NCBI GenBank assembly: GCA_964360635.1
Contig: CAYHXO010000008.1
Coordinates: forward strand, 2,772 to 66,771
Length of the DNA stretch: 64,000 nucleotides
From: an uncultured Candidatus Peribacteria bacterium
Lineage (GTDB): Bacteria > Patescibacteriota > Gracilibacteria > UBA1369 > 2-02-FULL-48-14
Reading direction: 5' to 3'
The translations under genes and the position numbers were made by a program. Positions within the stretch are counted from its first letter, which is position 1. Each line of letters starts with the position of its first letter. Below are positions 8,525 to 64,000 of the stretch, piece by piece. The notes below the pieces were generated by a model, which made no database searches, was not told where the DNA came from, and saw nothing but the letters and a program-made list of their open reading frames with translations.

Positions 8525-8550
8525 TACAGGACACATTAAATCACATTTGC

Positions 8551-30588: not shown

Positions 30589-30684
30589 GGCGCAAGCCTA
30601 CCGTAAAAGCTCGACTTTTTCCAATCCCTCATTTATTGTTTAGTCCCGCAGGGAGCATTAGGCCGAAGGCCGCATAATATCAAC

Positions 30685-31983: not shown

Positions 31984-32016
31984 TTGAACTCGCGTGCACT
32001 TTTTAAACTATAGCTC

Positions 32017-32559: not shown

Positions 32560-32612
32560 AATTTATCTTGGAGAATTGTGACTAGCCTGGTTTCATGCTA
32601 ACTTACACGAGC

Positions 32613-34432: not shown

Positions 34433-34482
34433 AAAAAATCCTGAGATGATACAGTCGCTCACTAATAATAACCACAAATGAT

Positions 34483-34761
34483 ATGTTTGCATCAGAAGTA
34501 CCAGTCAAAGAACTTACACAGGATGAGTTGGTAAGATCAATACAATCGGATTCACGACGTGCTGCCGATCCTTTACGTAGAATTAATTATGAACATGCTA
34601 AATTAGATGCAGAACACGCGATTTTAAGTCCTGAAGATGCAGACATATTAAGCAGAGCAGCTGCAATCGTTAAAAAAATTCGTGATACAGTACCTTCTGT
34701 TTTTGATAAATCAACTACACCTGTAAGTAGAGAAGGTCTTGGCCCAGATGGTGGACGGTAA
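34483..34761 (+). CDS. Hypothetical small protein (92 aa), no recognisable family
   Basis: ATG-initiated ORF standing alone between two sugar operons and followed by strong hairpins. Coding status is unproven. Confidence 0.4.
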   Translation: MFASEVPVKELTQDELVRSIQSDSRRAADPLRRINYEHAKLDAEHAILSPEDADILSRAAAIVKKIRDTVPSVFDKSTTPVSREGLGPDGGR

Positions 34762-34839
34762 TTGTTTAAGAAGGCTTGTGTGACTGTTTTAATGTTGTCA
34801 TATATAAAATATACACATTTCTTAAATTCTCGTCACCAA

Positions 34840-34897
34840 AAGTGTTCCCGGGAACACTTCTCAACCTGTAAATCCCCCGCCGGCGGGAGTTTTACAG
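34840..34897 (+). terminator. Two adjacent hairpins (possible terminator or structured RNA)
   Basis: Perfect 20-nt palindrome AAGTGTTCCCGGGAACACTT (34840-34859). It is followed by CTGTAAA...CCCGCCGGCGGG...TTTACAG (34866-34897). Neither has a clear trailing U-tract. Confidence 0.35.
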
Positions 34898-34951
34898 AGC
34901 AAAGCCACTTTATATTGCAAAAACCTGTTAAAGTCATTAACCTTCACGAGT

Positions 34952-35911
34952 ATGAAAACAGCTTTAATCACAGGTATAACAGGTCAGGATGGTTCTTATT
35001 TGGCAGAACACCTGCTAACACTCGGCTATAAAGTATATGGCTTAGTACGCAGATCAAGCGGAAATAATCTGGGAAGAGTCTCTCATTTGCTCGACAAAGT
35101 AGAAATTGTCTACGGTGATCTTCAAGACATGTCTTCTTTGATTACGGCTATAGAAAAATGCAAACCTGATGAAATTTACAACTTAGCAGCTCAATCTTTC
35201 GTGGGAAGTTCTTTCACAATGCCGGTTTTAACAAGTTCTGTTACCGGTCTGGGTGCACTAAATCTTTTTGAAGCGGCAAGACTAACAAAAAAAGACGCAA
35301 GAATTTACCAAGCTTCTTCAAGCGAAATGTTTGGAAAAGTTCGAGAAACGCCACAAACTGAAATGACTCCATTTCATCCTCGCAGCCCTTATGGATTTGC
35401 GAAAGTTTTTGCTCATTTTGCAGCGATGAATTATCGAGAAAGTTATGGAATGTATATTTGTAGCGGAATTTTGTTTAATCATGAATCACCAAGACGTGGT
35501 GAAGAATTTGTGACCAGAAAAATCAGCATGGGTGTTGCAAAAATCAAACTCGGCCTCTCAAAAGAAATTCAATTGGGAAATCTAGATGCCAAGCGCGATT
35601 GGGGTTTCGCAGGTGACTATGTAAAGGTAATGCACTTGATGCTTCAACAAAATGAGCCAGAAGATTTTGTAATTGGAATGGGTCAAACCCACAGTATTAA
35701 AGAGTTTTTAGATGCGGCATTTGCCGAAATTGGAATCACAGATTGGACTCCATATGTAAAAATTAACCCTGATTTTATTCGACCTGCAGAAGTAGACCTT
35801 CTGATTGCTGATGCCACTAACGCAAGAAAAAAATTAAACTGGGCTCCCGAATTCAACTTCGGCGATTTGGTTAAAATGATGGTAAAGTCAGATATTGAAC
35901 TTTTATCTTGA
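34952..35911 (+). CDS. gmd: GDP-mannose 4,6-dehydratase
   Basis: 319 aa. ALITGITGQDGSYLAEHLL, VRRSS, SSSEMFG, YGFAKV, NHESPRRG. Confidence 0.9.
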   Translation: MKTALITGITGQDGSYLAEHLLTLGYKVYGLVRRSSGNNLGRVSHLLDKVEIVYGDLQDMSSLITAIEKCKPDEIYNLAAQSFVGSSFTMPVLTSSVTGLGALNLFEAARLTKKDARIYQASSSEMFGKVRETPQTEMTPFHPRSPYGFAKVFAHFAAMNYRESYGMYICSGILFNHESPRRGEEFVTRKISMGVAKIKLGLSKEIQLGNLDAKRDWGFAGDYVKVMHLMLQQNEPEDFVIGMGQTHSIKEFLDAAFAEIGITDWTPYVKINPDFIRPAEVDLLIADATNARKKLNWAPEFNFGDLVKMMVKSDIELLS

Positions 35912-35912
35912 T

Positions 35913-37109
35913 ATGAAATATCCAGTTCAAATTGGCGTTGGCTGCGCTGACATTACCGATTTAGAGAAAAAATATGTGAACGAAGTTTTAGATTCTGGCC
36001 GACTTTCTTATGGAAAGTTTTCTCAAGCATTCGAAGGCAAATTTGCTGCAGCGCACGATAGAAAATTCGCCGTTCTTAGTAACAGTGGAACCAGTTCTTT
36101 ACAGGTTGCACTAGCTGCCATGAAGGAAAAATGGAAATGGAAAGATGGAGATGAAGTGATTGTTCCTGCCTTAACATTTATTGCAACTTCAAACATAGTT
36201 TTGCAAAATAATATGAAGGTCATTTTCGTAGATATTGATCCTATTACTTATAATATCGATCCATCAAAAATCGAAGCTGCAATCTCGCCAAAAACTCGAG
36301 CAATTATTCCGGTTCATCTTTTTGGACTTCCATGTGATATGAACGCAATCTGCAAGATTGCGCAAAAGTACAATCTAAAAATTCTTGAGGATTCATGTGA
36401 GACAATGCTGGTTTCTGCGCAAGGTCATAAAGTCGGCTCACGTGGTGATATTGCTTGTTTTTCAACATACATGGCGCATTTAATTGTCACAGGAGTTGGC
36501 GGACTTTCACTCACAAATGACGACGAGCTGGCGATTATGATGAAGAGTTATTTAAATCACGGACGCGACTCAATTTATCTAAAAATAGATGATGATAAAA
36601 ATACAAACTCAAGTGAATCACTTTTTCAAATTGTAGATCGCAGGTTCAGTTTTATTAGAATGGGTTACAGTTATAGAGTAACTGAGATGGAAGCCGCTCT
36701 CGGGCTTGCTCAAATTGAAAGAAAAGATGAAGTTATTGAGACTAGAAAAAAGAATGCCGAAAAACTTACAGAAGGTCTGCTTGAACTTGAGAAATATTTA
36801 CAATTGCCAAGTACTCCTGAGGGTTATGAACATGCTTTTATGATGTATCCAATTGTATTGAAAAATTCTGCAGCACGCGATCCGCTAATTATATTTTTGG
36901 AAGAAAAAAATATTGAAACAAGATATATGGTTCCACTTATCAACCAACCTTATTATTTAGACTTATTTGGTGATCTAGCAGCACAATTTCCAAACGCTGA
37001 TTATGTGAATAAACATGGTTTTTACATTGGCTGTCATAAAGCTATAGGCGATGCCGAAATAAAGTTTATTATCGATTCTTTTATAGAATATTTTTCAAAA
37101 AATGCCTAA
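35913..37109 (+). CDS. colD: DegT-family PLP/PMP enzyme with His in place of the Schiff-base Lys: GDP-4-keto-6-deoxy-D-mannose 3-dehydratase (ColD-like)
   Basis: I moved the start to MKYPVQ, 1 nt after the gmd stop. SNSGTSSLQVAL and ILEDSCET. The PLP-lysine position reads FSTYMAHLIVTGVGGLSLTNDDEL, with a His codon at 36477-36479 (residue about 189). It sits directly downstream of gmd. Confidence 0.6.
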   Translation: MKYPVQIGVGCADITDLEKKYVNEVLDSGRLSYGKFSQAFEGKFAAAHDRKFAVLSNSGTSSLQVALAAMKEKWKWKDGDEVIVPALTFIATSNIVLQNNMKVIFVDIDPITYNIDPSKIEAAISPKTRAIIPVHLFGLPCDMNAICKIAQKYNLKILEDSCETMLVSAQGHKVGSRGDIACFSTYMAHLIVTGVGGLSLTNDDELAIMMKSYLNHGRDSIYLKIDDDKNTNSSESLFQIVDRRFSFIRMGYSYRVTEMEAALGLAQIERKDEVIETRKKNAEKLTEGLLELEKYLQLPSTPEGYEHAFMMYPIVLKNSAARDPLIIFLEEKNIETRYMVPLINQPYYLDLFGDLAAQFPNADYVNKHGFYIGCHKAIGDAEIKFIIDSFIEYFSKNA

Positions 37110-50646: not shown

Positions 50647-51764
50647 GCCTCCTCAACACTCTTTGCAATATTCTGCCAGTCGTAACGTTCTTCCACCAAT
50701 TTCCTCGCATTCGCAGTAATAATTTTCATTTCTTCAGGCTCTTCAAAAACCCGAATAATCGCCTTTGAAAGTTCAGCTACATTTCCGCTCGGAACAAGAA
50801 ATCCGGTCTCGCCATTAGTTAAAAAATCCACAATCCCACCAACAGGGCAGGTGATTACAGGAGTTCCGAGAGCCATTGCTTCAATAAAAGAAACACCGAA
50901 TCCTTCAAATCGAGATGGTCTAACAAAAACATGAGACTTCCTAACTAATTCTGGTATAGCATCATGATTTATTGTTCCTAAAAAATCCACACAATTCTCA
51001 ATTTTTAATTCTACAATCCTTGCTTTCAGCGAGTGCTCCATTGGCCCCTCACCTGCAATTTTCAATTTTGCCTCAGGAAATTTTAGCAAGACAGCCGGCA
51101 TGGCCTCGATGAGAATATCAATTCCATTTCTTGGAATTAATGTTGAAGTCGTTGTAATCTCAAACTTATTTCTTTCCCCCTCATAAAGTCTGAACTTTTC
51201 TAAATCAATTCCGTTTGGCACAAGTACACATTTTTTTGCGCCCATTTTTTTTGCCCCCTCAAGAGAATACGAGCTTACACATGCGCATATATCTGCCACT
51301 TTCAACGCATTTCGAATCTGCATTTCTAAAGCCCATAGACCGTGTGAAAACATCAATCCCCAAAAGCCTTTCAATACCATTTCTTCTTTATAAGCAAAAG
51401 GATTTTGCACCGTCACATACAAAGGAATGCCCAACTTTTTCTTCAATTTTGCAGCGACAATTGCCTGTGGATAAACCTGTTTTGCATGAATAATATCAAA
51501 TTTTATTCCGCAATTTAAAACCTCTTTATAGACTGCACGACTAAAAAAAATGGAATTCAAATTTCTGATTTTCCAATATTTCACAGCATGAACAAAAACC
51601 TTCTCACTAAAAAGTGACTTTGCAGAATCATCATTCCCAACAAATAAGTGAATTTCATAATCTTTTTTTGAAAGCTCTCGTACAATCTCAACAATATGCA
51701 CTTCTGCCCCACCCAAATCATTTGGATTCAAGTCCGCACAAATTATGGCAACTTTGACACTCAT
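50619..51764 (-). CDS. GT4 glycosyltransferase
   Basis: 381 aa. GGAEVHIVEIVRELSKK and EGFGVSFIEAMALGTPVITCPVGG. Confidence 0.8.
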   Translation of the reverse strand: MSVKVAIICADLNPNDLGGAEVHIVEIVRELSKKDYEIHLFVGNDDSAKSLFSEKVFVHAVKYWKIRNLNSIFFSRAVYKEVLNCGIKFDIIHAKQVYPQAIVAAKLKKKLGIPLYVTVQNPFAYKEEMVLKGFWGLMFSHGLWALEMQIRNALKVADICACVSSYSLEGAKKMGAKKCVLVPNGIDLEKFRLYEGERNKFEITTTSTLIPRNGIDILIEAMPAVLLKFPEAKLKIAGEGPMEHSLKARIVELKIENCVDFLGTINHDAIPELVRKSHVFVRPSRFEGFGVSFIEAMALGTPVITCPVGGIVDFLTNGETGFLVPSGNVAELSKAIIRVFEEPEEMKIITANARKLVEERYDWQNIAKSVEEAYLSATSLK

Positions 51765-52600
51765 CTTAGATATTTAAATAAAATCCTTGACGCCATTGAT
51801 AGCACGGAAACAGGTAAGAAAGCGAGCATTTTAGCTGGTACTTTACTCCTTTTCCCATGTCGAATTTGTCCTTTTTGAACTGTCCATATCGGGATTTTTT
51901 TTGCCCCGAATCTTGATTTGAAAAATGCCAAGGAAGAACCTTCTTCGCAGTTTCCAAAATCGACTTCTAAATTATTTTCACAGGCAAATTTGATAAGATC
52001 AGCATAGGTTTTCATATTTGCCGCCGTCACGCGCGCAAGCGCGCTTTGTCCATTACTCCAAATATGTAATCTTGCGTCATCTCTCAATGCCACAATCCCA
52101 GAAGTATATTTCCCGTCACACTCGCTCATAAATAAAATAAAATCTTTTCCAAATTCTTTTCTTGCTAATGAAAAAAGGTCGTAACTTTGGGGAATGGCTC
52201 CAATTCCGCACATAGTGCGAACATACATTTTATAAAAGATCCAAAGTGATTCTTCATCATCTGCAATTTTTGTTCTTACACCATTTTTCTCTGCTTTATA
52301 AATTAAATTCCTAGTTTTTTGATGTATGCTCTCTTTCAAAATCTTATCGAAACTTTTGTCACATTTTAACCTGTAAGTTTCCAATCCAGATTCAAAATTC
52401 CAATGATTTGGTTTTGAATCAACACGAATACTTGCATTTGCTTTTGAAAAAAAATCTTCACTTGGCATTTCAAGATAATCACCTACAAAATTCATCTCCA
52501 TTCCTGCACGAGTTTCATAAAGCCAGACACCGCAAACTTTTTCAGAGCGTATACCGTATGCTTCTTTCAAAATTTTTGACCACTCATCACGATTAAACAT
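51761..52600 (-). CDS. FemAB-like / GNAT-fold (Acetyltransf_6-like) acyl- or aminoacyl-transferase
   Basis: 279 aa. The layout (KTRNLIYKAEKNGV, IFYKMYVRTM, GIVALRDDARLHIW, LAFFKSRFGAK) resembles FemAB/CelD-type proteins found in EPS loci. Recognised by eye only. Confidence 0.5.
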   Translation of the reverse strand: MFNRDEWSKILKEAYGIRSEKVCGVWLYETRAGMEMNFVGDYLEMPSEDFFSKANASIRVDSKPNHWNFESGLETYRLKCDKSFDKILKESIHQKTRNLIYKAEKNGVRTKIADDEESLWIFYKMYVRTMCGIGAIPQSYDLFSLARKEFGKDFILFMSECDGKYTSGIVALRDDARLHIWSNGQSALARVTAANMKTYADLIKFACENNLEVDFGNCEEGSSLAFFKSRFGAKKIPIWTVQKGQIRHGKRSKVPAKMLAFLPVSVLSMASRILFKYLR

Positions 52601-53633
52601 TTTTAAGTAGGTTACAAATCATTTTGACATCTTTCTCTCTCATAAATTTATTCACCGGTAGAATTAAAACTCTCTTCGCAAAACTACATGAAGAATTGTA
52701 CCAGATCCTATCTGCAAATACGCCAAATACTCTTAATTTAGCTAAAATCTCATCACGATTTTTATCTTTTGGTACGAGAATAGGAAAGTTGAAAAAGTCA
52801 TAAATTGGCTCACTTAATACAGCCCTATATTCGACGGGTAAACTTTCAAAATAAGCTCTATAAATATCTGCACAATTATCAATCATTCGAAGCCGTCTCA
52901 TGAAAAGCCTTTTTGAGCCCTCGCTTGCGGCTAGAAAAGTAGAGTATTTTTTATCATTATTTACATCATTGTCAAGCGCCAATTTTTTTGTTGACCGATA
53001 TAAATTCAATAAAGGTCGGATAAGACCAATCTTTAAAATAACAGGTATCAACCCATCAAAAAAAACCACCCGGTTCTTTATTTTAGGAAAATCAATATCT
53101 TCGGAAATTAAAATCCCGCCAAGTGAATTTGCAAGTCTTTTTGCAAAATGAAAGAGTACAAAATCACCAAAAGTTTTTTGAGAACTGAAACAATGTGCAC
53201 AATCTTCAATCAAAAAAAGTTTATTTTGTTTGCAAAGTGTTGAGATTTTTTCCACTTCACCTTTGTTCCCAAATGTACGAACAAAGAACACTCCTCCAAA
53301 ATCTTTCAAAGGCATTTCTTTCAATTTTTCAAAATCTAACAATCCCTCTGAATTGACCTCACAATAATCCACTTTTATACCTGCACGCTCGGCCGCCCGA
53401 GTAACCGAACTACAAATATATTTTGGAAAAATTACCCGTCGTTTTTCCATCACCAAATTTTTAAAAAGAAACTCAATAGCACCGCGTAAATGCATAAAAC
53501 TTTGAGCATATTTAAATTTTCTACCGGTCATTAATTTCTCAGCGACATCAAAGTCGGGAAAGTTTTTTGACTTAACCATCAGGCATTGAATGTCGCGCCA
53601 GTCAGATACCGGCATTACATCAGGAATTGGCAT
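52593..53633 (-). CDS. Divergent DegT/DnrJ-like PLP-fold protein
   Basis: 346 aa. FLIEDCAHCF and FHFAKRLANSLGGILISED align with the DegT blocks IEDxAxAxG and FSFxxxKxxxxGEGG, but both are degenerate. Confidence 0.45.
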   Translation of the reverse strand: MPIPDVMPVSDWRDIQCLMVKSKNFPDFDVAEKLMTGRKFKYAQSFMHLRGAIEFLFKNLVMEKRRVIFPKYICSSVTRAAERAGIKVDYCEVNSEGLLDFEKLKEMPLKDFGGVFFVRTFGNKGEVEKISTLCKQNKLFLIEDCAHCFSSQKTFGDFVLFHFAKRLANSLGGILISEDIDFPKIKNRVVFFDGLIPVILKIGLIRPLLNLYRSTKKLALDNDVNNDKKYSTFLAASEGSKRLFMRRLRMIDNCADIYRAYFESLPVEYRAVLSEPIYDFFNFPILVPKDKNRDEILAKLRVFGVFADRIWYNSSCSFAKRVLILPVNKFMREKDVKMICNLLKNV

Positions 53634-55752
53634 ATATTGAGGTACAAAGCTCTGTTAACGTCATGAATTCAAGATCCATGTGTCCTTTAAGCATAGCAAT
53701 CTTTTTCGACATTTCTGTGAAGTTTTCCCCGCTCGGATATTTCATATCCTCGCGTGATTGGAACTCCCAACTATGGCACAAAAACACAATATGCGGAGCC
53801 ACCTTATTCTTGCGGTGATATTCACGCAAACGTTCAATTGCAATTAAAATTTCACCGTCTGAGAGTTTTAAGAAATTAAACAAATTCATCACAATATAAT
53901 TTCCAAACGGCACAAAATATTTCCATTGAATATGTGGCATTGGGTCACGACTCACAGGAACACGACAAATTCCGTCCTTCAATTTTGGCATTGGTTTCCG
54001 ACCAAGCATCGCCGGCGAAGATGAGTCGATTTCAAATCCATATTCACGAATCAATGCCAAGGTAGTTAAATCAATAACCAAGTTAGGTGCACGGAATGCA
54101 CGTACTGCTTTTAATCCACACGAATCCACAATCTCTCGAATTTTTTTTAATAATTTTTTCCTTTCAATTGGAGAGACCCATGAGTCTTTTAGAAACCATT
54201 TTTCACGACCCCAAAGTTCATGATGCAAACCATGAATTCCAATCTCATGGCCATCCGCCTCATATCCTCGCAATTTCTCTTGAAATGTTTCAATTAAATC
54301 AGCCTGACAAAACAATGTACTCTTTATTTCAAGTGTTTGGCACATCTCTCTAAACCTATCTAGAAAAACCGGGATATGATCAATTTCATGTGGCAAATCA
54401 GCAGATCCATAAGCCTGTTCAACATCCACAGTTAAACAAAACTTCAATGGTAATCTCCCCTTATAAGTTTCTTTATGTAATTTTCTTTCAACTAAAACTT
54501 GTGGCAAAAACCAAGGCATTCTACCATCCTGAAAAATTGAAATAAATCGCATATAATTAAATCTTCCCTCTACATTTTTTGTTTTTAAAAGTTCCTCGTA
54601 AATTTCAGCAGTTCTCGCCGCAACTTTTTCCCATGAATATTCATTTTTCACTAGCTCATAGCCATTTTCACCCATATGTCTTAATCCGGGATTCAATGCA
54701 AAGTGTTCCAAATAATACGCCAATTCTTCTACATCTTCTGGCGCTACAAGGTGTCCGTTAACCTTCTCAATAACTAGCTTTTTATTGTCACCGACATTAG
54801 TTGCCAAAACAGGTAATTTTGCTGCGCTTGCCTCCAGTAAAGTAAGAGGGAAGCCTTCTGACCTTGATGGCAAAACGAATAAATCGGAGCTCTTATAAAG
54901 TTGAACAAGGGCTTCGCCGGAAACTTTTCCGTGAAACTTTACATGTTTACCCAAATCAACTTTTTCACACATTTTTTTAAGAGTTTTTTCCTCTGTACCT
55001 TCACCTACGATATGTAATAAAAAATCTTTGTGTGACTGAATAAATTCATTTGATTCAATAACTTTTTTCACGGCTGAGATCAGAACATCAACTCCTTTTA
55101 TATGATCAAGTCTGCCAACAAAAATCGCATCAAAAGTTGTATCAGTTTTTTGATCTGGAACTGCATCAAAATTATCCAAGCGAATTCCGTTAGGAATAAT
55201 TGCAACATTTTTATTAACATTTTCAGCTTTCAAAAAATTTTCTGCCACACTTATTTCTCTCGCATATCTTGTTTCTAAAAGCGTAACTCTTTCTATTAAT
55301 TTTTTAACAGAAAATCCTTTTTGAAAAATCGTTGTTCCATGAACTGTCAAAACCGCAGGAACTCCGGTTATTAATGAAGCAAGTTTCATTGGAACAGAAC
55401 TTGAAACTGCATGTGCATGATATAAATCATATTTTTTACCAAAAAAATGTGCATGAATTAATACAAAAAAACTCGCAATCATATACCAAATCCTCATTGC
55501 AGGATTTCCGAATGACGACTTCCAGCCCAATTCTTTAACGGACAACAGGGGGGAAGCAGCAAGTTGTTTTTCATAATGACTCATCCTTCCACTTATAGCC
55601 CTTGTAATAATGTCAATTTCATAATGATGACTTTCAATTAAAGCTCTCGAAACCTCTGCAACGTGCACTTGCCCTCCTCCAAAAAGCGGAAACCAAGCGT
55701 CTACTAAAAGTGCTATTCTTGGCTTATTTTTCTCAATTTTTCTTATTTCCAT
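53620..55752 (-). CDS. Fusion: GT4 glycosyltransferase (N-terminal) plus CE4/NodB-type polysaccharide deacetylase (C-terminal)
   Basis: 710 aa. GT4 part: LVDAWFPLFGGGQVHV and EGFPLTLLEASAAKLPVLATNVG. From about residue 400: CLTVDVEQAYG, GIHGLHHE and AFRAPNL, which correspond to NodB motifs 1-3. Confidence 0.7.
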   Translation of the reverse strand: MEIRKIEKNKPRIALLVDAWFPLFGGGQVHVAEVSRALIESHHYEIDIITRAISGRMSHYEKQLAASPLLSVKELGWKSSFGNPAMRIWYMIASFFVLIHAHFFGKKYDLYHAHAVSSSVPMKLASLITGVPAVLTVHGTTIFQKGFSVKKLIERVTLLETRYAREISVAENFLKAENVNKNVAIIPNGIRLDNFDAVPDQKTDTTFDAIFVGRLDHIKGVDVLISAVKKVIESNEFIQSHKDFLLHIVGEGTEEKTLKKMCEKVDLGKHVKFHGKVSGEALVQLYKSSDLFVLPSRSEGFPLTLLEASAAKLPVLATNVGDNKKLVIEKVNGHLVAPEDVEELAYYLEHFALNPGLRHMGENGYELVKNEYSWEKVAARTAEIYEELLKTKNVEGRFNYMRFISIFQDGRMPWFLPQVLVERKLHKETYKGRLPLKFCLTVDVEQAYGSADLPHEIDHIPVFLDRFREMCQTLEIKSTLFCQADLIETFQEKLRGYEADGHEIGIHGLHHELWGREKWFLKDSWVSPIERKKLLKKIREIVDSCGLKAVRAFRAPNLVIDLTTLALIREYGFEIDSSSPAMLGRKPMPKLKDGICRVPVSRDPMPHIQWKYFVPFGNYIVMNLFNFLKLSDGEILIAIERLREYHRKNKVAPHIVFLCHSWEFQSREDMKYPSGENFTEMSKKIAMLKGHMDLEFMTLTELCTSIYANS

Positions 55753-55772
55753 TTGTCTATAGTTAGCAGCAC

Positions 55773-56717
55773 TTACTGTGCTGTGAATGCCGCTCCGGCT
55801 TTGCCTTCGCGCTGTTCAATCTTTAATGATTCTTTCAGTGAGTTTAGCGCAATTTCCAATTGTTTGTCATCGGGTTCTTTAGTTGTAAGCCTTTGAATTA
55901 AAAGCCCAGGTAAAACGAATAATTTTATACAAACATTTTTTCCGTATTTCGCGCTGAATTTTAAAAACTCATAGCTTATGCCGGCAATTAGTGGCAGTGA
56001 AGCAATTCTCGAAAAGAAGTTCACCGCAAAACTCTCGGATTTTGGTAGAAAAGTATAAACCATAACGCTCATTATAATCACAATAAAAATAAAACTTGTT
56101 CCGCAACGTGGGTGGAAGCGAGTTTGTTTCCGGGCATTTTCAACAGTCAGAGGAAGGCCTTTTTCATATGTCCAAACTGATTTATGTTCAGCGCCGTGAT
56201 ATTGAAAAACTCTTCGAATATCTTTTAAGATTGAAATCCCCAGAATGTATCCAAGAAAGATCGCAATTTTTGTTAGGCCGTCAATTGCATTAAAAAGAAT
56301 GTAGTAATTTTTTACTAGAGGCAAAGCCTCAGAAACTTTCTCTGCGACCCAAAGTGGAATAAATTTAAGCATGAAAAGTGTCAAACCCAATGTCACCGCA
56401 ACGTACAAAATTCCAAAAAAACCATAAACATATTTCTTCCAGCCTTTTTGTTCCACCTTTACTTCGCCTGTATAAACATCACTTGAATAATCTAAAGCCC
56501 TAAAACCAATTATCATTGATTCCACCAACTGAACTCCTCCACGAATAATCGGGAGACTAAAAAATCCCTTTTTCGTACGGGAAGAAAACTTAGCTTGCAT
56601 CATTTTTATACTACCGTCTTCATGCCGAACTGAAACGGTGTAGTAATTTGGAGATCGCATCATAACTCCTTCGAGTACGGCCTGCCCTCCAATAGCGAAA
56701 TCAATTTTTTCAGTCAT
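55773..56717 (-). CDS. DUF1385-family membrane protein
   Basis: 314 aa. IGGQAVLEGVMMRSP, YHGAEHK, several TM segments. Confidence 0.7.
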   Translation of the reverse strand: MTEKIDFAIGGQAVLEGVMMRSPNYYTVSVRHEDGSIKMMQAKFSSRTKKGFFSLPIIRGGVQLVESMIIGFRALDYSSDVYTGEVKVEQKGWKKYVYGFFGILYVAVTLGLTLFMLKFIPLWVAEKVSEALPLVKNYYILFNAIDGLTKIAIFLGYILGISILKDIRRVFQYHGAEHKSVWTYEKGLPLTVENARKQTRFHPRCGTSFIFIVIIMSVMVYTFLPKSESFAVNFFSRIASLPLIAGISYEFLKFSAKYGKNVCIKLFVLPGLLIQRLTTKEPDDKQLEIALNSLKESLKIEQREGKAGAAFTAQ

Positions 56718-57361
56718 ATATTTTTAGCAAATGTGATAATTGTACCAAAACGTTGTTTACACCCATTCCTTCTAAAAGAAAACCACCCTTCGTCACATTT
56801 CGTACATATATTCATATGATCGATATTTTCATTTTTGATTCCCAAATCCGCCAGTTGTTTCAAAGCTATGGCATTTAAATCAACTTTTTTCCCATGAATT
56901 GCCCAATGAAATTTCTTTGGTATCTCATTCTCAGGATCAGAAAACTCGCTGCATTCAAACCCTAATGACGGGCCAATTCCAACGCGCATTCCCTCCGCCG
57001 TACAGCCCATTTCAATCATTTTCTCGAGAGTTTTTGGAATTATATCTTGTGTAAGGCTCCTCCAACCCGCATGCACCACAGCGACAATCCCTCTGCCGGC
57101 AAAAACTAAAGGAATACAATCTGCAGTTTTCACCATAAGAGTAACTCCTGGCTTATTGCAGATTATTGCATCATGACCGATTTCATCTTCATGATAATCC
57201 TCAAAAATCATAATATCACTACCGTGAACCTGTTTCATTGTTTGCACTGGAAAAGGCAGACCTTGTAAAACATCTTCTTGGATTACCGCCGCATTTATTC
57301 CTGAACCTAAATCTAAGTCATGAATCTGCATTTTTTTGACAATAGGCAATGTAAAAGTCAT
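56714..57361 (-). CDS. YfiH/PgeF-family (laccase-domain) protein
   Basis: 215 aa. QVHGSDI, TADCIPLVF, VHAGWRS. Confidence 0.75.
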   Translation of the reverse strand: MTFTLPIVKKMQIHDLDLGSGINAAVIQEDVLQGLPFPVQTMKQVHGSDIMIFEDYHEDEIGHDAIICNKPGVTLMVKTADCIPLVFAGRGIVAVVHAGWRSLTQDIIPKTLEKMIEMGCTAEGMRVGIGPSLGFECSEFSDPENEIPKKFHWAIHGKKVDLNAIALKQLADLGIKNENIDHMNICTKCDEGWFSFRRNGCKQRFGTIITFAKNI

Positions 57362-57387
57362 ACTGACTATACCAATTTTTAAACTTT

Positions 57388-58344
57388 ATGAATAAGAAAA
57401 AACACGTCCTTGCAGTTTACCTTTGTGTTGCTGTGGCTCTTTTGGTTGGAGGTTTATTCTACCTAAGAGAAGCGAGTACTATAATCAATACTCATGAATC
57501 TATTGAAAACGCTGAACAGATAGATAAATTACAAAAAGTAATGTTTTGGTCTGGCATGAGTAGAGTGGTTCTTGCTGGAATTCCATATGAAATGCTTCAT
57601 TTTACAGCTGAAAATGAGCCTACTTACAGTAAACTTGATGAAAATAACGAACTTTTGAAGACAACTTTTGAAAACTATCCCGGGCAATTTCCTTATTTTT
57701 GTGGAATTGATCCTCATGATTTCTCTGCACTTGAAAAAATTGAAACTTGCATGAAGGAAGGGGCACTAGGAATTAAAATTTACGATGGATATAAGGCATA
57801 TCACACACTAGCATTGGACAATGCGGACATGTTGAAAATTTTCGCAAAAATTCAAGAACTCGGTGGAATTTTGTTGATGCCTGTGAGTACTGAAAATTTC
57901 AGAACAGAATTTGAGAATATGTTGAAATTAAACCCAGATTTGCCGGTTATTTGCTCTCATTATTGCCTTTCTTCAAAGAATTTGGACAGGCTTACTGAAT
58001 TAATGGGAACTTATCCAAATCTCTATATCGATACAAGTTTTGGATTTATTGATTATGCCATTGCAGGATTCCAAACCATTACAGCAAATCACGATCAATT
58101 CTTATCTTTCTTCACTGATTATCAAGACAGGATATTTTTTGCAACCGACAATGTGATTACAGGTTTTGAAAGCAAAGATCGTGATTGGATTACTGCTCTT
58201 TATTCTGATTATATTTCCATTCTTACTGAAGGAGAGTTTGAGTCAAAATCACAAGATGACACAATATATAAAGGACTTGGCTTGTCATCTTCAATTCAAC
58301 ACAAAGTTTTCTCCGAAAACTGGAATAAACTGACCGAAAAATGA
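57388..58344 (+). CDS. Membrane-anchored metal-dependent hydrolase-like protein (amidohydrolase/TIM-barrel-like)
   Basis: 318 aa. N-terminal TM helix. ICSHYC, YIDTSF and FATDN are reminiscent of Amidohydro_2 proteins. This is a weak call. Confidence 0.35.
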   Translation: MNKKKHVLAVYLCVAVALLVGGLFYLREASTIINTHESIENAEQIDKLQKVMFWSGMSRVVLAGIPYEMLHFTAENEPTYSKLDENNELLKTTFENYPGQFPYFCGIDPHDFSALEKIETCMKEGALGIKIYDGYKAYHTLALDNADMLKIFAKIQELGGILLMPVSTENFRTEFENMLKLNPDLPVICSHYCLSSKNLDRLTELMGTYPNLYIDTSFGFIDYAIAGFQTITANHDQFLSFFTDYQDRIFFATDNVITGFESKDRDWITALYSDYISILTEGEFESKSQDDTIYKGLGLSSSIQHKVFSENWNKLTEK

Positions 58345-59171
58345 AAAAATTTTGGATCGTAGGGCATCCACTTTCTTTCTGTCTCTGTACACCTGTTTCT
58401 AACGGTGCATTTAAAGAACTTGCTTTCGATGCTGAGTTCGAAACTCACGATGTCGCTCCGGATGACCTACATCTCGTGATGGAAAAAATTCGCTCAGGTG
58501 AGCTTGCTGGTGCAGTTACAACCATGCCACATAAAACTCCCGCACTAGAATTGTTGGATGAAAGTACTGATGAGGCAAAAGCAATTAACGCGGTTAATCT
58601 TGTGCTGGGTCACTCACCGAATGGTGAGCTTCCCTATAAGTTAAAAGGTTACAACACAGATTGGCTTGGTGCTCTCGGCGCAGTTAAATCTCTAATTCCA
58701 GAGCTTAAAGGAAAACACATTTTAGTACTTGGAGCTGGTGGAGCAGCTCGAGCAGCGGCTTACGCTTTTCACAAAGAAGGTGCGAATGTTTCAATTTGGA
58801 ATCGAACGTCTGAACGAGCAAAAGCTTTTGCCGAAAAAATGCAAATTACACAGATTCCGGACATGCGAAAATGGGACGGAGAACCAGATATAATTATTAA
58901 CGCAACTTCAGCCAGTTATCAGCCAAGCCAATCAACTCTTGTACCATTTCCACTCTGGAAAAATGTACAATTGGCAATGGATGCGGTTTACGGTAAAACC
59001 AGCCTTTTCCTTGAAGAAGCAAATGCTGCCAAAGTAAAACATATCATTTCCGGAGATGTTTGGTTCTTAAATCAAGCGGCACCACTTTTGGAAATAATTA
59101 CGGGAAAGAAAGCGCCCTTGGAGCTGATGAAAAAACTCACAGACGAGGCCGTGGATATTATAAAATCCTAG
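58341..59171 (+). CDS. aroE: Shikimate dehydrogenase
   Basis: 276 aa. GAVTTMPHKT, GYNTDWLG, VLGAGGAARAAAYA. Confidence 0.75.
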   Translation: MKKFWIVGHPLSFCLCTPVSNGAFKELAFDAEFETHDVAPDDLHLVMEKIRSGELAGAVTTMPHKTPALELLDESTDEAKAINAVNLVLGHSPNGELPYKLKGYNTDWLGALGAVKSLIPELKGKHILVLGAGGAARAAAYAFHKEGANVSIWNRTSERAKAFAEKMQITQIPDMRKWDGEPDIIINATSASYQPSQSTLVPFPLWKNVQLAMDAVYGKTSLFLEEANAAKVKHIISGDVWFLNQAAPLLEIITGKKAPLELMKKLTDEAVDIIKS

Positions 59172-59242
59172 CTAGTTTTTTGTAGTTGAGTTGGTGACAA
59201 AATGTCACGAGTTGAACCTACTAAGTTTTTGATAGAGATAAC

Positions 59243-59277
59243 TGTTGTCAGCCCTTCGACAACAGGAAATTGATCTG
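59243..59277 (+). promoter_or_regulatory. Composite motif TGTTGTCA-N7-GACAAC-N6-TTGATCTG, copy B (upstream of the Bro-N gene)
   Basis: Read directly: (C)TGTTGTCAgcccttcGACAACaggaaaTTGATCTG. Here the inverted repeat is a perfect 8+8 bp, CTGTTGTC-N8-GACAACAG. Confidence 0.45.
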
Positions 59278-59348
59278 TTAAATGGAATCCTTATTTGTCA
59301 TATTCCAATTTGGAAATCAAAATCTCAACGTATTTTATAAAAATTATT

Positions 59349-60206
59349 ATGACAACAAAAATTGCTTTGTTCGGCGGGAAGAAAATTAGAAAAACTATGC
59401 ATCAAGATGAGTGGTGGTTCTCGATTGTTGATGTTATCGAAGTATTAACAGATAGCGCAAAACCGAGTGTTTATTGGAGTGTCATGAAGGCTCGTGTTAA
59501 AAATGAAGAGGGATCCCAGTTGTTTACAATTTGTAAACAACTCAAACTTGAAGCTTTGGATGGCAAAAAATATGAAACCGACTGTGCCAACACCGAAGGC
59601 ATCTTCCGCATTATTCAATCAATTCCTTCTCCAAAAGCTGAACCTTTCAAACGTTGGCTGGCTAAAGTTGGATATGAGCGTGTGCAAGAAATAGAAAATC
59701 CTGAACTTAGCGCAAATCGAACTCGAGCCATCTACAAAGCCAAAGGATACAGCGATGACTGGATAGAAAAAAGAATTCGCGGAATCGCCATCAGAGAAGA
59801 ATTAACAGATGAATGGAGAAATCGTGGAGCCGCATTCGACGATTACGAAATTCTAACTGCAGAGATTTCCAAAGCGACTTTTGGAGTAACTCCTCGTTCA
59901 TACAAAAAAATGAAAGGCCTCAAGCGCGAAAATCTTAGAGATCACATGAATGATTTTGAACTAATTTTCAATATGCTTGGTGAGCGTTCCACAACAGAAA
60001 TTCATCGAAGTGAAAATTCGAAAGGTGTACCAAAATTACAAGAAGACGCAAAATTCGGAGGTGACATTGCCGGCGGTGCAAGAAAAAAGCTTGAACAAAG
60101 ACTCGGGCGATCAATAATATCGACAGAAAATTTCCTTAAAGGTCTTCAAAAGCATTCTCCCGAATCAAAAATTCCCAAGCAAATAAAGCCACAGCGGAAA
60201 CAATAA
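59349..60206 (+). CDS. Bro-N-domain protein (phage antirepressor / DinD-like)
   Basis: The track ORF begins with TTG at 59295. I moved the start to ATG (MTTKIALFGG). IRKTMHQDEWWFSIVDVIEVL is Bro-N-like. KAEPFKRWLAKVGYERVQE and the following helical region resemble DinD/antirepressor C-termini. Confidence 0.5.
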   Translation: MTTKIALFGGKKIRKTMHQDEWWFSIVDVIEVLTDSAKPSVYWSVMKARVKNEEGSQLFTICKQLKLEALDGKKYETDCANTEGIFRIIQSIPSPKAEPFKRWLAKVGYERVQEIENPELSANRTRAIYKAKGYSDDWIEKRIRGIAIREELTDEWRNRGAAFDDYEILTAEISKATFGVTPRSYKKMKGLKRENLRDHMNDFELIFNMLGERSTTEIHRSENSKGVPKLQEDAKFGGDIAGGARKKLEQRLGRSIISTENFLKGLQKHSPESKIPKQIKPQRKQ

Positions 60207-60609
60207 ATACGTCGGCTAAATTGAATGTTGGCCACCAATAAACTTTCAAAAAATCAACAACATATCCAAGTCGGAATCTATCAATTGTATTTCCAATTGC
60301 GCCAGCCAAAAGCAAAGCTAAACCTGTTAAATGCCAGTGATCACGCCATAATTTATTTTCAATTACAAGCCAAACTCCAAGCCCAAAAACCGCGATAGTT
60401 AAAACCCATATCATCCAAATTGGTAAGTTTAATCCAAACACAATTCCGTCATTGTAAGACAAAGCCATTCCAATATTTTGATCATTTATTGAGTCCAAAT
60501 TTTTAACTGCCCACCATTTTGAAATTTGATCTGCACCAAATAAAACCAAAAAAAGCGGACCGAAAAATTTCCAAATTCTATCCAATTCCGGCGACCTCGC
60601 AAATTTCAT
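60136..60609 (-). CDS. lspA: Lipoprotein signal peptidase II
   Basis: I moved the start to MKFARSPELD. The track ORF extends to 60894 with a TTG start through low-complexity sequence antisense to the giant ORF. Motifs: NDGIVFGLNL, GAIGNTIDRFRLGYVVDFL, WPTFNLADVFI. Confidence 0.8.
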   Translation of the reverse strand: MKFARSPELDRIWKFFGPLFLVLFGADQISKWWAVKNLDSINDQNIGMALSYNDGIVFGLNLPIWMIWVLTIAVFGLGVWLVIENKLWRDHWHLTGLALLLAGAIGNTIDRFRLGYVVDFLKVYWWPTFNLADVFIVSAVALFAWEFLIRENAFEDL

Positions 60610-60667
60610 AATATTTCGTTTACATTCCCACCATATAAGACCCATAAAATTTCGCAAACTTTCAGGG

Positions 60668-60696
60668 TTGACCAAAACGCCATAATACTGTATACT
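60668..60696 (+). promoter_or_regulatory. sigma70-like promoter candidate (TTGACC-17 nt-TATACT) for the giant ORF
   Basis: TTGACC at 60668-60673 and TATACT at 60691-60696. A second perfect TATAAT lies at 60709-60714, just 5 nt before the ATG at 60719. No obvious Shine-Dalgarno sequence. Confidence 0.35.
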
Positions 60697-60718
60697 TTTA
60701 TATTGAAATATAATCACT

Positions 60719-63700
60719 ATGGCAAATCCTATAACAGCATCAGATATCGACGACGTAAAGCCTGATCCAGCCGACGCTGGAACTGACTCTGGTTCCGAAC
60801 CAGAGTCTGAGGCTGGCTTCGAAGACGAAGAGCCAACTTTAGCTGGTGACAAAGGTGAAAAACCAGAATCAAAAAAACCATCATTGTTGGACAACGCTCG
60901 TGATGCTGTTAAATCAGGTGTTAAGAATGTTTATTCAAAAGTTAAAGATGCAAACGATGGAAGAGTAAAAGAGAATGAGAGAATAAAGAAAGAATATGAT
61001 GCAAGGCGTGCAGCAATTGAGGAAGCAAATAAGTTGGTTAATGACGGTGAAATTAATAATGAGCCTAATGAATACAGAAGAAAAGAAAAAATGAGAGAAA
61101 TTATAAGCCGTAGATTAAGTTCGACAGGCGTTAATGTAAAATTTATTGATGAAGCGATTGAATCAGCTATAAAAGCAAAAAAAATTAGAGATGATAAAGA
61201 AAAGAAAGAAAGTGACATTGCGATTGATAAGGAACAATCAGAGTTTATAAAATCTGTTTTAGATCTACCCGAAATAAAGGATATAAAAGATAAGCAGAAG
61301 AAAAGAGAAAAAATAAAAGAGAAGGTAAAGGCTAAAACAAAAAAAGTTTTTCGTGATAGAATGGGAAATGGGATTTCATCAGATTTTAATGAAAAAAGAT
61401 TTAACCAAGCTTTTGATAGAGCTTACGAACAACAGGAATCAAATTTTGATGGCCTTATTGACAAGGGTTTGAAGGATGAAGATGAGAAAGAAAAAATAAA
61501 AGCCAGAAAAGCCGAAGCCGCAAAAAAACGTTCAGAATCAAAACCAATAATCACAACTGAAAAATTTCTACTCGCTACTACTCTCGCTATCCACACAGGA
61601 GCATCTCTTGGTGGAATGGCTGTTGACGGTACTGTTGCAGTTGCAAAAGGCACAGGACGATTAGTTAGAGAAGAAGTTGTTGGAATTGCAAACAGTGGAG
61701 TCGAATTAGGAAAACAGGTTGGAAAGACTGTAGTTTATCCATTTGGACGAATTGGATTCGGAGCAAAAAATCGATTCAGTCGTGGCTTAGATTGGGCATT
61801 AAATTGGCCAACTGATCACAGTGATGTTGTAAAAAAATCTCATGCACCAGTACATCCAGAAGAACCAAAAGCAGATCATGGAGGACACGCAACTCCAGCC
61901 GCAGCAGCTGCCGGCCCATCAAAGCCAAACATCCTTTCAAGAGGTATAGATTATGTCGGTGGTGGACTTTCTTCAATTGCCGGAGGCATGTGGAATTTAA
62001 CAAAAAAAGCTTGGTACAGAACTCAGCAGGCAGTCTTAGCGACTGTTGTTGCTCCAGCAGGATTAGTTCTGGGTGCACTTGAAGGTGCCGCACTCGCAAT
62101 TCCACACGATATCATTGGTGTTCACTGGGAAGGCGAGGCATCAGTTAGCGAAACAGGCGCAGCTGCAAGAAAAACTACTGACAAAAAATTCCACGTTGAT
62201 GGTGGTGCACTTGGCATTTTACTTGCCGGCGGAAACACAGTGAAAGATATAGTTTGGGACGCGCCAATTCGTGCATTCGAAGAACAATTAACTACTATAA
62301 AGGAGACACCTATTGAAGATAAACCTGCAGCAAAAGCTGCCGACAAAGCTCATCCTAAACCTGCAGAGGCTCCAAAAGCTGAAGCATCAGCCGGAGGTGG
62401 ACATGCTAAACCAGAAGAAAAGCATCCTAAGCCTGAGGAAAAAGCACATGATAAAGAACATGAAAAGCCGGCCGAGAAACCTGCAGAAAAAATAGCTGAA
62501 ACTGATTCAGCTGGTCCTGGCGAGCACCCTAAAGAGGACCACGACGACCACCACAAAAAGTCGGTAGTGCCTGTGCATACTGATAAAAAGACAGGATTTA
62601 CAGCAAGAGTTAAAGGAATTGGAAATGCAATAAAGGCTTTTAGTGAATATGTTCGAGAAGATGAACCTACACAAGCTGACTTTGAAAAAGCTATTGATGC
62701 AATGGATGAAGCCGTTGGCAGTGAAGATGGTAGCGTGATTGGTGCTCTAGCGAAATCAGGCCGAAATATATTAGGGCGACCCGACAATATTGAAGTGCAT
62801 TACGACGAACTCGGAAAACAAATGTTCAAACTTAAGACCAAGGATCGTGAAGCATTTTTCCGATCACTTAATATGGTTGATTTTAGAAAGAAGTTTAGGG
62901 TTTTAATTGAAAATCCTGGAGCAACCAGATTTACTGCCGGAATGAAAACAGACCCAGGAAAGCAAGATATAAAGGATCAAATTGCTAATTTATTTAACCA
63001 CAAAGGAGCATTAGATGCTGCTGAATTGGGAGCTATGATTGATGCTCTTGAAGATAAACTTGGAATTAGAGCTGCAGTAGCAGGCAGACCGGGAGAATTA
63101 AGAAGAGAACTTGAGAATATAAGGACGCTTTTGGCACCACAAACTTTAACACCACCTCTTGCAGCTAATACAAGATTGAATGATCTATTCCATAGTGCGG
63201 AAACTACAACTATTGATATTAATTACAAGGCACTTGGAGAACAGATTTTTAATTTGAAAACAGCTGATCAAACTAAGTTCTTTAGCTCATTTGACGAGGC
63301 AAAGTTTAATATAGAATTTCCATTAATCTCGTCATCACCAGTAACATCTGCGGCGGCAGATCTTGCCACGATGTTGGATAACGATGATGACGGTTCGCTG
63401 AGAAAAGGTGCTAAATTAGAAATTAATAATATACTTAAGTCAGATAGAAAATTAACAGTCAATGAAGTACTTGCAAGAGTGAATATTTTAAGAACAAAAC
63501 TTTCTTTACCTCAGCCGGCAGTTGCGAGGACTCCAACTGCATTTCCAGCAACTACACCACCTAGTACGCCTCCTCCAGCTCAAGTAACAGTATCCAGATT
63601 GTTAGATAATGTGCTGGCAGCGTTAGACAAAGATAACCTTGATAAGGTCTTTGCCCCTGAAATAGCTCCAAATTTAAATTACGCAAAATTTGGAGAAACA

Positions 63701-64000
63701 ATAAGTAAAATTAAAACAACACCACAAAGAGATGCATTTGTAAAAAATTACAGTAAGAGCGATTTCGAAATTTACTTCAGATCAATGCTGACGACTTCTA
63801 GTTTTGCTGAAAACACGAAAACACCAGACGGAAGGAAAATATTAAAAGGTAAAATCGCTTCATTATTAGGATATCCGGATGAAAGCGAGGTGCTTCCAGA
63901 TGAATTTAAAAATAGAATTGACGACTTAGTAAAAGCATTGAATACCCCAGCACTTACACCTACCACTCCAAGACCAGATGTCTTAGCAGGAATGGAAAAA
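60719..64000 (+). CDS. Very large protein of unknown function, at least 1,094 codons, 3' end outside the window
   Basis: Absent from the ORF track because no stop occurs before the window end. Hand translation from ATG 60719 is open for all 1,094 codons and ends exactly in frame at 64000. It begins MANPITASDIDDVKPDPADAGTDSGSEPESEAGFEDEEPT. Only short antisense shadow ORFs are listed in this region. Confidence 0.8.
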   Translation, partial: MANPITASDIDDVKPDPADAGTDSGSEPESEAGFEDEEPTLAGDKGEKPESKKPSLLDNARDAVKSGVKNVYSKVKDANDGRVKENERIKKEYDARRAAIEEANKLVNDGEINNEPNEYRRKEKMREIISRRLSSTGVNVKFIDEAIESAIKAKKIRDDKEKKESDIAIDKEQSEFIKSVLDLPEIKDIKDKQKKREKIKEKVKAKTKKVFRDRMGNGISSDFNEKRFNQAFDRAYEQQESNFDGLIDKGLKDEDEKEKIKARKAEAAKKRSESKPIITTEKFLLATTLAIHTGASLGGMAVDGTVAVAKGTGRLVREEVVGIANSGVELGKQVGKTVVYPFGRIGFGAKNRFSRGLDWALNWPTDHSDVVKKSHAPVHPEEPKADHGGHATPAAAAAGPSKPNILSRGIDYVGGGLSSIAGGMWNLTKKAWYRTQQAVLATVVAPAGLVLGALEGAALAIPHDIIGVHWEGEASVSETGAAARKTTDKKFHVDGGALGILLAGGNTVKDIVWDAPIRAFEEQLTTIKETPIEDKPAAKAADKAHPKPAEAPKAEASAGGGHAKPEEKHPKPEEKAHDKEHEKPAEKPAEKIAETDSAGPGEHPKEDHDDHHKKSVVPVHTDKKTGFTARVKGIGNAIKAFSEYVREDEPTQADFEKAIDAMDEAVGSEDGSVIGALAKSGRNILGRPDNIEVHYDELGKQMFKLKTKDREAFFRSLNMVDFRKKFRVLIENPGATRFTAGMKTDPGKQDIKDQIANLFNHKGALDAAELGAMIDALEDKLGIRAAVAGRPGELRRELENIRTLLAPQTLTPPLAANTRLNDLFHSAETTTIDINYKALGEQIFNLKTADQTKFFSSFDEAKFNIEFPLISSSPVTSAAADLATMLDNDDDGSLRKGAKLEINNILKSDRKLTVNEVLARVNILRTKLSLPQPAVARTPTAFPATTPPSTPPPAQVTVSRLLDNVLAALDKDNLDKVFAPEIAPNLNYAKFGETISKIKTTPQRDAFVKNYSKSDFEIYFRSMLTTSSFAENTKTPDGRKILKGKIASLLGYPDESEVLPDEFKNRIDDLVKALNTPALTPTTPRPDVLAGMEK
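62786..64000 (+). repeat. At least 3 diverged tandem protein modules (about 141-152 aa) inside the giant ORF
   Basis: Module heads: NIEVHYDELGKQMFKLKTKDREAFF, TIDINYKALGEQIFNLKTADQTKFF, PNLNYAKFGETISKIKTTPQRDAF. The conserved Tyr codons are at 62801, 63224 and 63680, spaced 423 and 456 nt apart. Each module ends in a Pro/Thr-rich linker. Confidence 0.6.

Follow-up and report, generated by a model that had tools for sequence, protein, structure and literature searches.

The DNA analysed here, referred to throughout as the window, is a stretch of 64,000 nucleotides from an uncultured Candidatus Peribacteria bacterium (assembly GCA_964360635.1, contig CAYHXO010000008.1), and its right-hand end is occupied by the 5' part of a large protein-coding gene, named gene X in this work. 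Protein X consists of a charged N-terminus, a conserved core with Gly/Ala-rich hydrophobic segments, a low-complexity linker and an array of helical modules. It belongs to an undescribed family restricted to Peribacteria/"Gracilibacteria", and is tentatively read below as a membrane-associated cytoplasmic scaffold. Translation of the plus-strand frame from 60719 to 64000 yielded 1,094 codons and zero stops up to the window end, and an in-frame TGA at 60704-60706 makes the ATG at 60719 the earliest possible start. Only short minus-strand open reading frames (ORFs) are listed over this region because the ORF list leaves out frames that run off the end of the sequence. A sequence-only reading of the window had taken those ORFs for antisense shadows of a genuine plus-strand gene, and the homologues and substitution pattern described below show that it was right. 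An exact 54-base match to the last bases of the window, which could have extended the contig, was absent from the metagenome contig collection. An alternative code with UGA read as Gly, as in some Gracilibacteria, was considered and found to be unneeded, given the long contiguous ORFs of the window under table 11 and the conserved start region.

Three full-length proteins of 1,160-1,324 aa, with 42-59% identity to protein X, were returned by the first homologue search. A scan of one genome per GTDB species added two more, at loci L003 (1,112 aa) and L004 (1,599 aa), both in metagenome-assembled genomes (MAGs) titled Candidatus Peribacteria (L and P numbers denote the loci and proteins of relatives). 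The distant members came from an exhaustive hidden Markov model (HMM) search of 1.84 billion cluster representatives, in which 27 proteins were found at E<=0.001, 24 of them further members. In total the family comprises 5 close and ~24 distant relatives, all from Candidatus Peribacteria/"Gracilibacteria" assemblies of the candidate phyla radiation (CPR), and these MAGs bear out the proposed host, a small-genome uncultured CPR bacterium. Members present in the NCBI database are named 'hypothetical protein [Candidatus Gracilibacteria bacterium]'. A repeat search with a 31-sequence alignment gave the same three proteins only, among the matches listed, as low-complexity words crowded the candidates. 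No relatives were found in JGI metagenomes with alignment-derived patterns, and literature searches on Peribacteria and on CPR division proteins yielded no description of the protein. The protein had been called giant; with full-length relatives of 1,112-1,599 aa it is large, yet below that.

The ratio of nonsynonymous to synonymous substitution rates (dN/dS, Nei-Gojobori) between the window and its relatives was 0.12-0.27 in the N-terminus, core, linker and modules, so every region of X is under purifying selection. The sequence-only reading had staked its case on homologues and purifying selection, and both were found. One copy of gene X was present at each locus fetched, and no paralogue was found in the window. 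That the frame is a chance opening or a pseudogene could be argued only from the absent annotation and the absent Shine-Dalgarno sequence. Against this stand 1,094 stop-free codons at a G+C content of ~39%, full-length homologues, the low dN/dS, a conserved start codon and promoter-like site, and a module modelled with high AlphaFold confidence, by which this explanation is refuted and left with practically no probability.

The five-region layout proposed for the protein was recovered in full by composition, coordinates and a module HMM, each region lying where it had been placed (Table 1). No hydrophobic stretch and no signal peptide were found at the N-terminus of X by composition and hydrophobicity profile, in which the first peak falls at residue 283. 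Residues 61-270, within the stretch (residues ~50-275) that the sequence-only reading took for a putative coiled coil, are rich in Lys (19%), Glu (12%), Asp (10%) and Ile (9%), and this variable, highly charged N-terminal region is 93% identical to that of L004 and 24-33% identical to those of the other close relatives. The His/Pro/Lys/Glu tract proper spans residues 543-614 (62345-62560) within the linker. His makes up 3-16% of the linker in most members; a His-rich linker as a universal family trait was rejected because five distant members have only 0-1% His.

Table 1. Features of gene X and of the adjoining lspA region in the window
Feature	Position	Strand	Basis
Gene X, 5' part; 3' end beyond the window	60719..64000	+	translation, homologues, dN/dS
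Acidic N-terminus, residues 1-60, net charge -12, without signal peptide	60719..60898	+	composition
Lys/Glu-rich region, residues 61-264	60899..61510	+	composition, protein identities
Conserved core, residues 265-535, best-conserved part of the family	61511..62323	+	alignments, local jackhmmer
Hydrophobic segment S1, residues 283-311, Gly/Ala-rich, in all core-bearing members	61565..61651	+	Kyte-Doolittle, Hessa-scale
Conserved loop motif GKTVVYPFGRIGFGAKNRFSRGLDWA within the K/R-rich loop	61721..61798	+	invariant alignment columns
S2, short Gly-rich stretch, residues 414-427	61958..61999	+	alignment
AWYRTQQ motif and hydrophobic segment S3 with conserved Glu-Gly, residues 431-467	62009..62119	+	hydrophobicity, alignment
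S4, VDGGALGILLAGGNTVKDIVWDAP, residues 493-516	62195..62266	+	core HMM positions 213-274
His/Pro/Lys/Glu/Ala linker, residues 536-640	62324..62638	+	composition, blastn
Conserved pre-module segment, residues 641-690, FEKAIDAMDEAVG...	62639..62788	+	alignment, identities
Helical module 1, residues 691-831	62789..63211	+	module HMM E=4e-43; AlphaFold pLDDT mostly >90; positional orthologue of m1
Helical module 2, residues 832-983	63212..63667	+	module HMM, AlphaFold, positional orthology
Helical module 3, residues 984-1094, cut by the window end	63668..64000	+	module HMM, identities, positional orthology
lspA (lipoprotein signal peptidase, 157 aa), divergent from X	60136..60609	-	ORF translation; Peptidase_A8 at the same position in relatives
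lspA-X intergenic region	60610..60718	.	DNA alignment of five genomes, strongly conserved
Promoter-like TTGACC-17-TATACT	60668..60696	+	consensus scan, 10/12 positions matched

The C-terminal part of the protein is built from a repeat module. Tandem modules with a shared head motif had been proposed, and both are confirmed by anchor residues Y695, Y836 and Y988, spaced by 141 and 152 residues, and by the module HMM, which tiles the protein at 691-829, 832-983 and 984-1094 with E-values of 1e-29 to 1e-43. In every member, the entire C-terminal part is covered by 1-9 copies of a single HMM of ~136 positions: three before the end of the window, four in P0001, P0002 and L003, five in P0003, seven in L004 and nine in P0010. 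The modules are positional orthologues across species (m1 with m1, m2 with m2), which suggests that each position is probably specialised; the additional modules of P0003 and L004 derive from internal duplication. In the split-form module protein P0010, residues ~1391-1564 (L005 ~11998-12519) form an extra C-terminal domain with a borderline match to DUF4256 (27.2 bits against a cut-off of 27).

A two-module model of residues 691-983, computed with AlphaFold from a module-pair alignment, had a mean predicted local distance difference test score (pLDDT) of 88.7 and a predicted template modelling score (pTM) of 0.60. Each modelled module is all-helical, with ~8-9 helices, and a low-confidence Pro-rich connector lies between the two. 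Foldseek searches with this model gave no significant match in the PDB (best E=0.38, TM 0.15) or in BFVD (best E=0.5), and sequence profile searches of the PDB with module and core alignments gave no match. From a comparison covering the PDB and BFVD, the module is provisionally regarded as a previously unseen fold. A globin fold was tried, as tandem haemoglobins were the top Foldseek matches, and rejected (E=0.38, probability 0.15, TM 0.15). His accounts for 0.6-1.2% of module residues in the close relatives and none is invariant, so a conserved proximal His is missing, which also speaks against a globin. A 14-3-3, TPR or HEAT-like solenoid was rejected because all such Foldseek matches had E >1.

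The four Gly/Ala-rich stretches quoted in the sequence-only reading correspond to residues 283-311, 414-427, 443-462 and 493-508 of the core (bases 61565-62242). S1 and S3 are the sole real hydrophobic peaks of the protein, and both are retained in members that are ~25% identical overall. Across members S1 has a Kyte-Doolittle value of 1.3-1.95 and a Hessa-scale sum of +1.4 to +5.7 kcal/mol, a crude figure that uses the scale values of Hessa et al. 2005 and ignores position effects. The Kyte-Doolittle value of S3, 1.94, is the maximum of the protein, and G188, G192, D200 and G203 (numbering of alignment A5) are invariant across distant members. S2, which is missing in P0002, is dispensable. 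The loop between S1 and S3 (residues 311-437) is net positive, with 16 Lys and Arg against 10 Asp and Glu. It carries the motif GKTVVYP.GRI..GAKNR..R.LDWA, near-invariant in close relatives, and Trp/Lys motifs such as WNLTKKAWYRTQQ. In distant members S1 resembles a classical Gly-zipper transmembrane segment (e.g. LGLGAVAGTGILAGGALVL and ALGVAIAGISTGALVVGGV). The proposal that these stretches resemble glycine-zipper or membrane-hairpin segments stays plausible, but their hydrophobicity is just marginal. The ORF that comes directly after X at locus L006 (10718-11302; 194 aa) is rich in His, Lys and Ala at its N-terminus and in Gly at its C-terminus. The C-terminus includes GGGYSLTKRFFRG, which resembles the core motif GGMWNLTKKAWYR of X, and the ORF may have arisen from the core by detachment or duplication.

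Gene fission was observed within the family. About half of the distant representatives begin with MS(A/G)..H..EHH...NGG.LG.....L.KG.TYDA, which aligns to core HMM positions 213-274 and corresponds to S4. These positions lie at the N-terminus of P0004, P0008, P0010, P0012, P0014, P0017, P0019, P0020 and P0027, so that in split genes the conserved part of the module protein opens with S4. In such proteins the S4-type start is followed by a His-rich stretch and then by modules. All four split-type contexts (L005, L010, L011 and L012) have a separate gene 13-28 bp upstream of the module gene, encoding the variable N-terminus and S1, mostly also S3, and ending in a His-rich tail. The family exists, to judge from these gene arrangements, either as one fused polypeptide or as an anchor protein plus a module protein. 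In the split pairs (L005 7170-7900, L010 ~4800-5100, L011 ~4100-4400, L012 ~300-700), the anchor protein ends with, and the module protein starts with, a His-rich stretch; in L005 His makes up 18% of the last 60 aa of the upstream protein. Either the gene broke within a His-rich loop, or the halves re-associate through their His-rich ends, perhaps via a metal. Neither a hydrophobic segment nor an export- or signal-like N-terminus is present in the split-form module proteins. Of the arguments for cytoplasmic modules this absence is the strongest available, and if the modules are indeed cytoplasmic, S1 and S3 must either both span the membrane or both merely dip into it.

The array also has a mosaic history. 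DNA of the window is colinear with that of L004 from 51423 to 62595 at 88-92% identity, and similarity in blastn comparison stops inside the linker. At the protein level, identity to L004 is 93% in the N-terminus, 89% in the core and 26-33% in the modules, while dS climbs along the gene from 0.12 to 0.41 to 1.75. The opposite is seen with P0002, which is 28% identical in the N-terminus and 28-51% over N-terminus and core, and 83% identical in module 3, where DNA identity is 83.5% against a background of ~70%. These shifts along the gene show that the module array has been exchanged between lineages by recombination, besides module duplication and loss.

Such turnover raises the possibility that X is exposed on the envelope or cell surface, for instance as an adhesin or wall-layer component, anchored by S1 with its N-terminus inside and its modules outside, and diversifying under pressure from phages or host partners. 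The variation of the array from 4 to 9 copies, the break of similarity to the near-identical genome L004 at 62595, the mosaic of identity and dS along the gene, and the envelope genes next to it would fit such a protein, and Peribacteria have been reported to encode many large extracellular proteins (PMC4736985). The selection data do not: dN/dS of 0.12-0.27 gives no sign of positive selection. X also lacks a signal peptide, having an acidic N-terminus without a hydrophobic stretch, and no SLH, sortase or other surface-anchoring Pfam domains were found in it. The K/R-rich loop follows S1, the second hydrophobic segment, S3, would bring the chain back to the cytoplasm, and the module protein of the split form carries neither an export signal nor a hydrophobic segment. 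A surface role, which the sequence-only reading had entertained, is accordingly disfavoured, and we consider it unlikely.

Upstream, gene X diverges from lspA. A 252-aa minus-strand ORF with a TTG start (60136-60894) is an over-extended version of lspA, whose true start is at 60609; the extension runs antisense through the acidic N-terminus of X and overlaps the X start. The intergenic DNA (CCCACCATATAAGACCCATAAAATTTCGCAAACTTTCAGGGTTGACC...) is strongly conserved in five genomes while the adjoining N-terminus of X shows 24-33% protein identity outside L004, which suggests a regulatory region common to the divergent pair. The promoter-like site ends 22 nt upstream of the X ATG, and a Shine-Dalgarno sequence is not obvious. 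The start codon and the TTGACC-17-TATA(C/A)T hexamers are kept in L004, L002, L003 and L001, so that the promoter-like elements of its own that had been ascribed to X hold up in four relatives. An ORF of 303 aa whose product carries a Bro-N domain (E=1.8e-13) lies between aroE and lspA at 59295-60206 (+). L004, the closest relative, has a counterpart (7752-8663). The corresponding position lacks it in L001, L002, L003, L005, L006 and L009, and the ORF probably came in recently with a phage or mobile element.

Downstream, all 12 relatives examined have the same set of co-oriented genes after X, consisting of ftsW-murG, a GT1 gene, two small genes and a radical-SAM (MiaB-like) gene. In nine of the 12, ftsW comes directly after X with a spacer of 35-99 bp; 1-4 ORFs intervene in L003, L006 and L009. 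On every contig that extends far enough upstream, lspA is found there in divergent orientation; in L006 it is separated from X by a GGDEF gene. The spacer between X and ftsW contains a conserved inverted repeat, AGGCTATAATC(n)CAGCCT, which embeds a TATAAT (-10-like) box (L004 13976-14033, L002 13484-13543, L001 4884-4940). This repeat may serve as a promoter of ftsW, as an operator, or as an attenuator or weak terminator of X. Terminator prediction gave no intrinsic terminator in the L002 and L004 spacers, and the sole terminator-like site of L004 is inside ftsW. Large proteins of 1,071 and 868 aa with C-terminal TPR repeats are encoded between X and ftsW in L003 (12974-16189) and L009 (7163-9769), and in L003 the TPR protein is followed by three mutually similar ORFs of 509, 219 and 306 aa. 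Elsewhere in the window, the G+C content of 30001-36000 is 0.39-0.40 against 0.29-0.34 in the flanks, and the GC skew flips sign at two places, near 22 kb and near 42 kb, in line with gene blocks on opposite strands. Rfam gave no match anywhere in the window.

Inherited gene order would also account for the neighbourhood if X were a soluble cytoplasmic protein unrelated to the envelope, with its Gly/Ala segments as buried helices or flexible stretches. The marginal hydrophobicity of the segments agrees with this, as do the colinearity of the whole region including unrelated genes, the insertions between X and ftsW in three lineages and the promoter that ftsW may possess. On the other side, the hydrophobicity of S1 and S3 has been kept while their surroundings diverged to ~25% identity, S1 of distant members is Gly-zipper-like, and Trp/Lys/Arg motifs of the WNLTKKAWYR type, which are typical of membrane interfaces, flank the segments. 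A soluble X is on balance doubtful.

Comparison with known families gave no assignment, in agreement with the sequence-only reading, which could place no part of the protein. The window protein had no match in Pfam (best E=0.22), in NCBIfam (best E=0.0099, 15 bits against a cut-off of 280) or among PDB sequences at E up to 1. No Pfam family was matched by more than one of 31 family members. Five members were without a match in PADLOC and in PHROGs. HMMs of the Gly-zipper/Rick_17kDa type did not match, but Gly-rich hydrophobic segments, albeit marginal ones, are present in X, with Kyte-Doolittle values of 1.3-1.95 and Hessa-scale sums above 0. For EzrA, there was no Pfam match, no N-terminal hydrophobic segment and no EzrA chain among the Foldseek matches listed. 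The membership tests run came out negative, apart from the mixed picture for the Gly-zipper type, and X is not filed under EzrA, ZipA or similar families.

A phage or mobile-element origin, with X as a tape-measure-like protein, or alternatively a role in anti-phage defence, is suggested superficially by composition, as charged helical regions, Gly-rich hydrophobic stretches and internal repeats are also found in tape-measure proteins. Two tape-measure proteins were among the BFVD matches, all of which were non-significant (E 0.5 or worse). The window and L004 have the Bro-N ORF immediately upstream of lspA, and it is missing from the other loci; the array is exchanged in a cassette-like manner. 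No relative was found on 2.9 million viral contigs, the PHROGs and PADLOC searches were negative, and X occupies a fixed, single-copy chromosomal place among housekeeping genes (aroE, lspA, ftsW, murG) across deep divergence. Such an origin or role is very improbable.

By architecture, X comes closest to membrane-anchored helical-repeat scaffolds such as EzrA, or to anchor-linker-domain proteins such as ZipA. EzrA of Firmicutes is a membrane-anchored Z-ring regulator with spectrin-like, triple-helical repeats of ~100 residues and one N-terminal transmembrane helix. X would share with it a membrane-proximal anchor followed by a cytoplasmic array of helical-bundle repeats, as well as being large, fast-evolving, lineage-restricted and possibly linked to division or the cell wall. 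X differs in having ~280 residues ahead of its hydrophobic region, two marginal Gly/Ala-rich segments in place of the single helix, and modules of ~136 residues with ~8-9 helices. Proteins of the ZipA and FtsK N-terminal type likewise join a membrane anchor, in X a proposed one, to folded domains through a long, charged, Pro-rich low-complexity linker. However, X has no sequence match to them, its linker is His-rich in most members, and its folded part is a repeat array and not a single FtsZ-binding or motor domain. Two Gly/Ala-rich hydrophobic stretches of ~27-33 residues with a hydrophilic loop between them, and both ends predicted on one side, recall reticulon and caveolin hairpins and glycine-zipper proteins; there is no homology and no Gly-zipper Pfam match, and the hydrophobicity of X is marginal and its insertion a prediction. 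Tandem all-helical domains with short linkers, variable copy number and, as proposed for X, an elongated scaffold form are shared with spectrin, plakins and the talin rod, from which X is set apart by the lack of a Pfam or Foldseek match and by module length and helix count.

The reading that we prefer, tentatively and with the recognition that it could well prove wrong, is that X is a cytoplasmic scaffold associated with the membrane, with a possible role in cell-wall synthesis or division. The core, with its two marginal Gly/Ala-rich helices and Trp/Lys/Arg-rich interfacial motifs, would attach the protein to the membrane at its cytoplasmic face, acting as a hairpin of helices or as a two-pass anchor, with both protein ends in the cytoplasm. 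The flexible, often His-rich linker would carry a chain of 4-9 positionally differentiated helical domains of ~136 residues, and this chain may provide a multivalent scaffold or tether. Since gene X keeps its place beside ftsW-murG and next to lspA, the process involved is most likely cell-wall synthesis or division, and the likeliest clients would be the adjacent-encoded proteins FtsW and MurG; a specific link to these two is less probable than the scaffold role itself.

Several observations weigh against this reading. X has no structural or sequence similarity to any known scaffold. The Hessa-scale sums of S1 and S3, crude as they are, amount to +1.4 to +5.8 kcal/mol, whereas FtsW helices encoded in the same genome score -3.3 to +3.0, and the two marginally hydrophobic segments may not enter the membrane. 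An AlphaFold model of the core, built from a 9-sequence alignment, was unusable (pLDDT 34). Cassette-like replacement and copy-number change of the array are more typical of exposed or conflict-driven proteins than of scaffolds with a housekeeping role. Other genes can sit between X and ftsW, as in L003, L006 and L009, and the TATAAT-containing inverted repeat in the spacer means that ftsW may own a promoter. The whole 20-kb neighbourhood is colinear in related genomes, including the unrelated aroE and an amidohydrolase gene, so the adjacency of X and ftsW is weak evidence of shared function and may reflect inherited gene order and not functional coupling.

Ordered by the probability that we attach to them, the rivals of a membrane-associated scaffold are a soluble cytoplasmic protein, a surface-exposed protein, a phage or defence protein and, last, an artefact. 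A bolder version of the scaffold would make X a Peribacteria-specific, membrane-anchored cytoskeletal or divisome/elongasome scaffold of unseen helical fold, which replaces the canonical membrane tethers of the wall machinery in these ultrasmall cells and has cassette-exchanged modules and separable halves, perhaps held together through their His-rich ends. As a whole this is an improbable proposition.

The CPR make up a large share of bacterial diversity, and to our knowledge almost nothing has been established about how their very small cells build an envelope and divide. If X is merely an uncharacterised cytoplasmic protein, it adds one further orphan family to the CPR. The module, a confidently modelled repeat domain without counterpart in Pfam, PDB or BFVD, is a candidate new protein fold, and its cassette-like turnover is an unusual evolutionary pattern within a housekeeping locus. 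Where the gene is naturally split, the anchor and module halves delimit the domains and could be used directly as experimental constructs. Conserved, single-copy, under purifying selection and always beside ftsW-murG in this lineage, X is a concrete candidate for an envelope or division factor restricted to that lineage.

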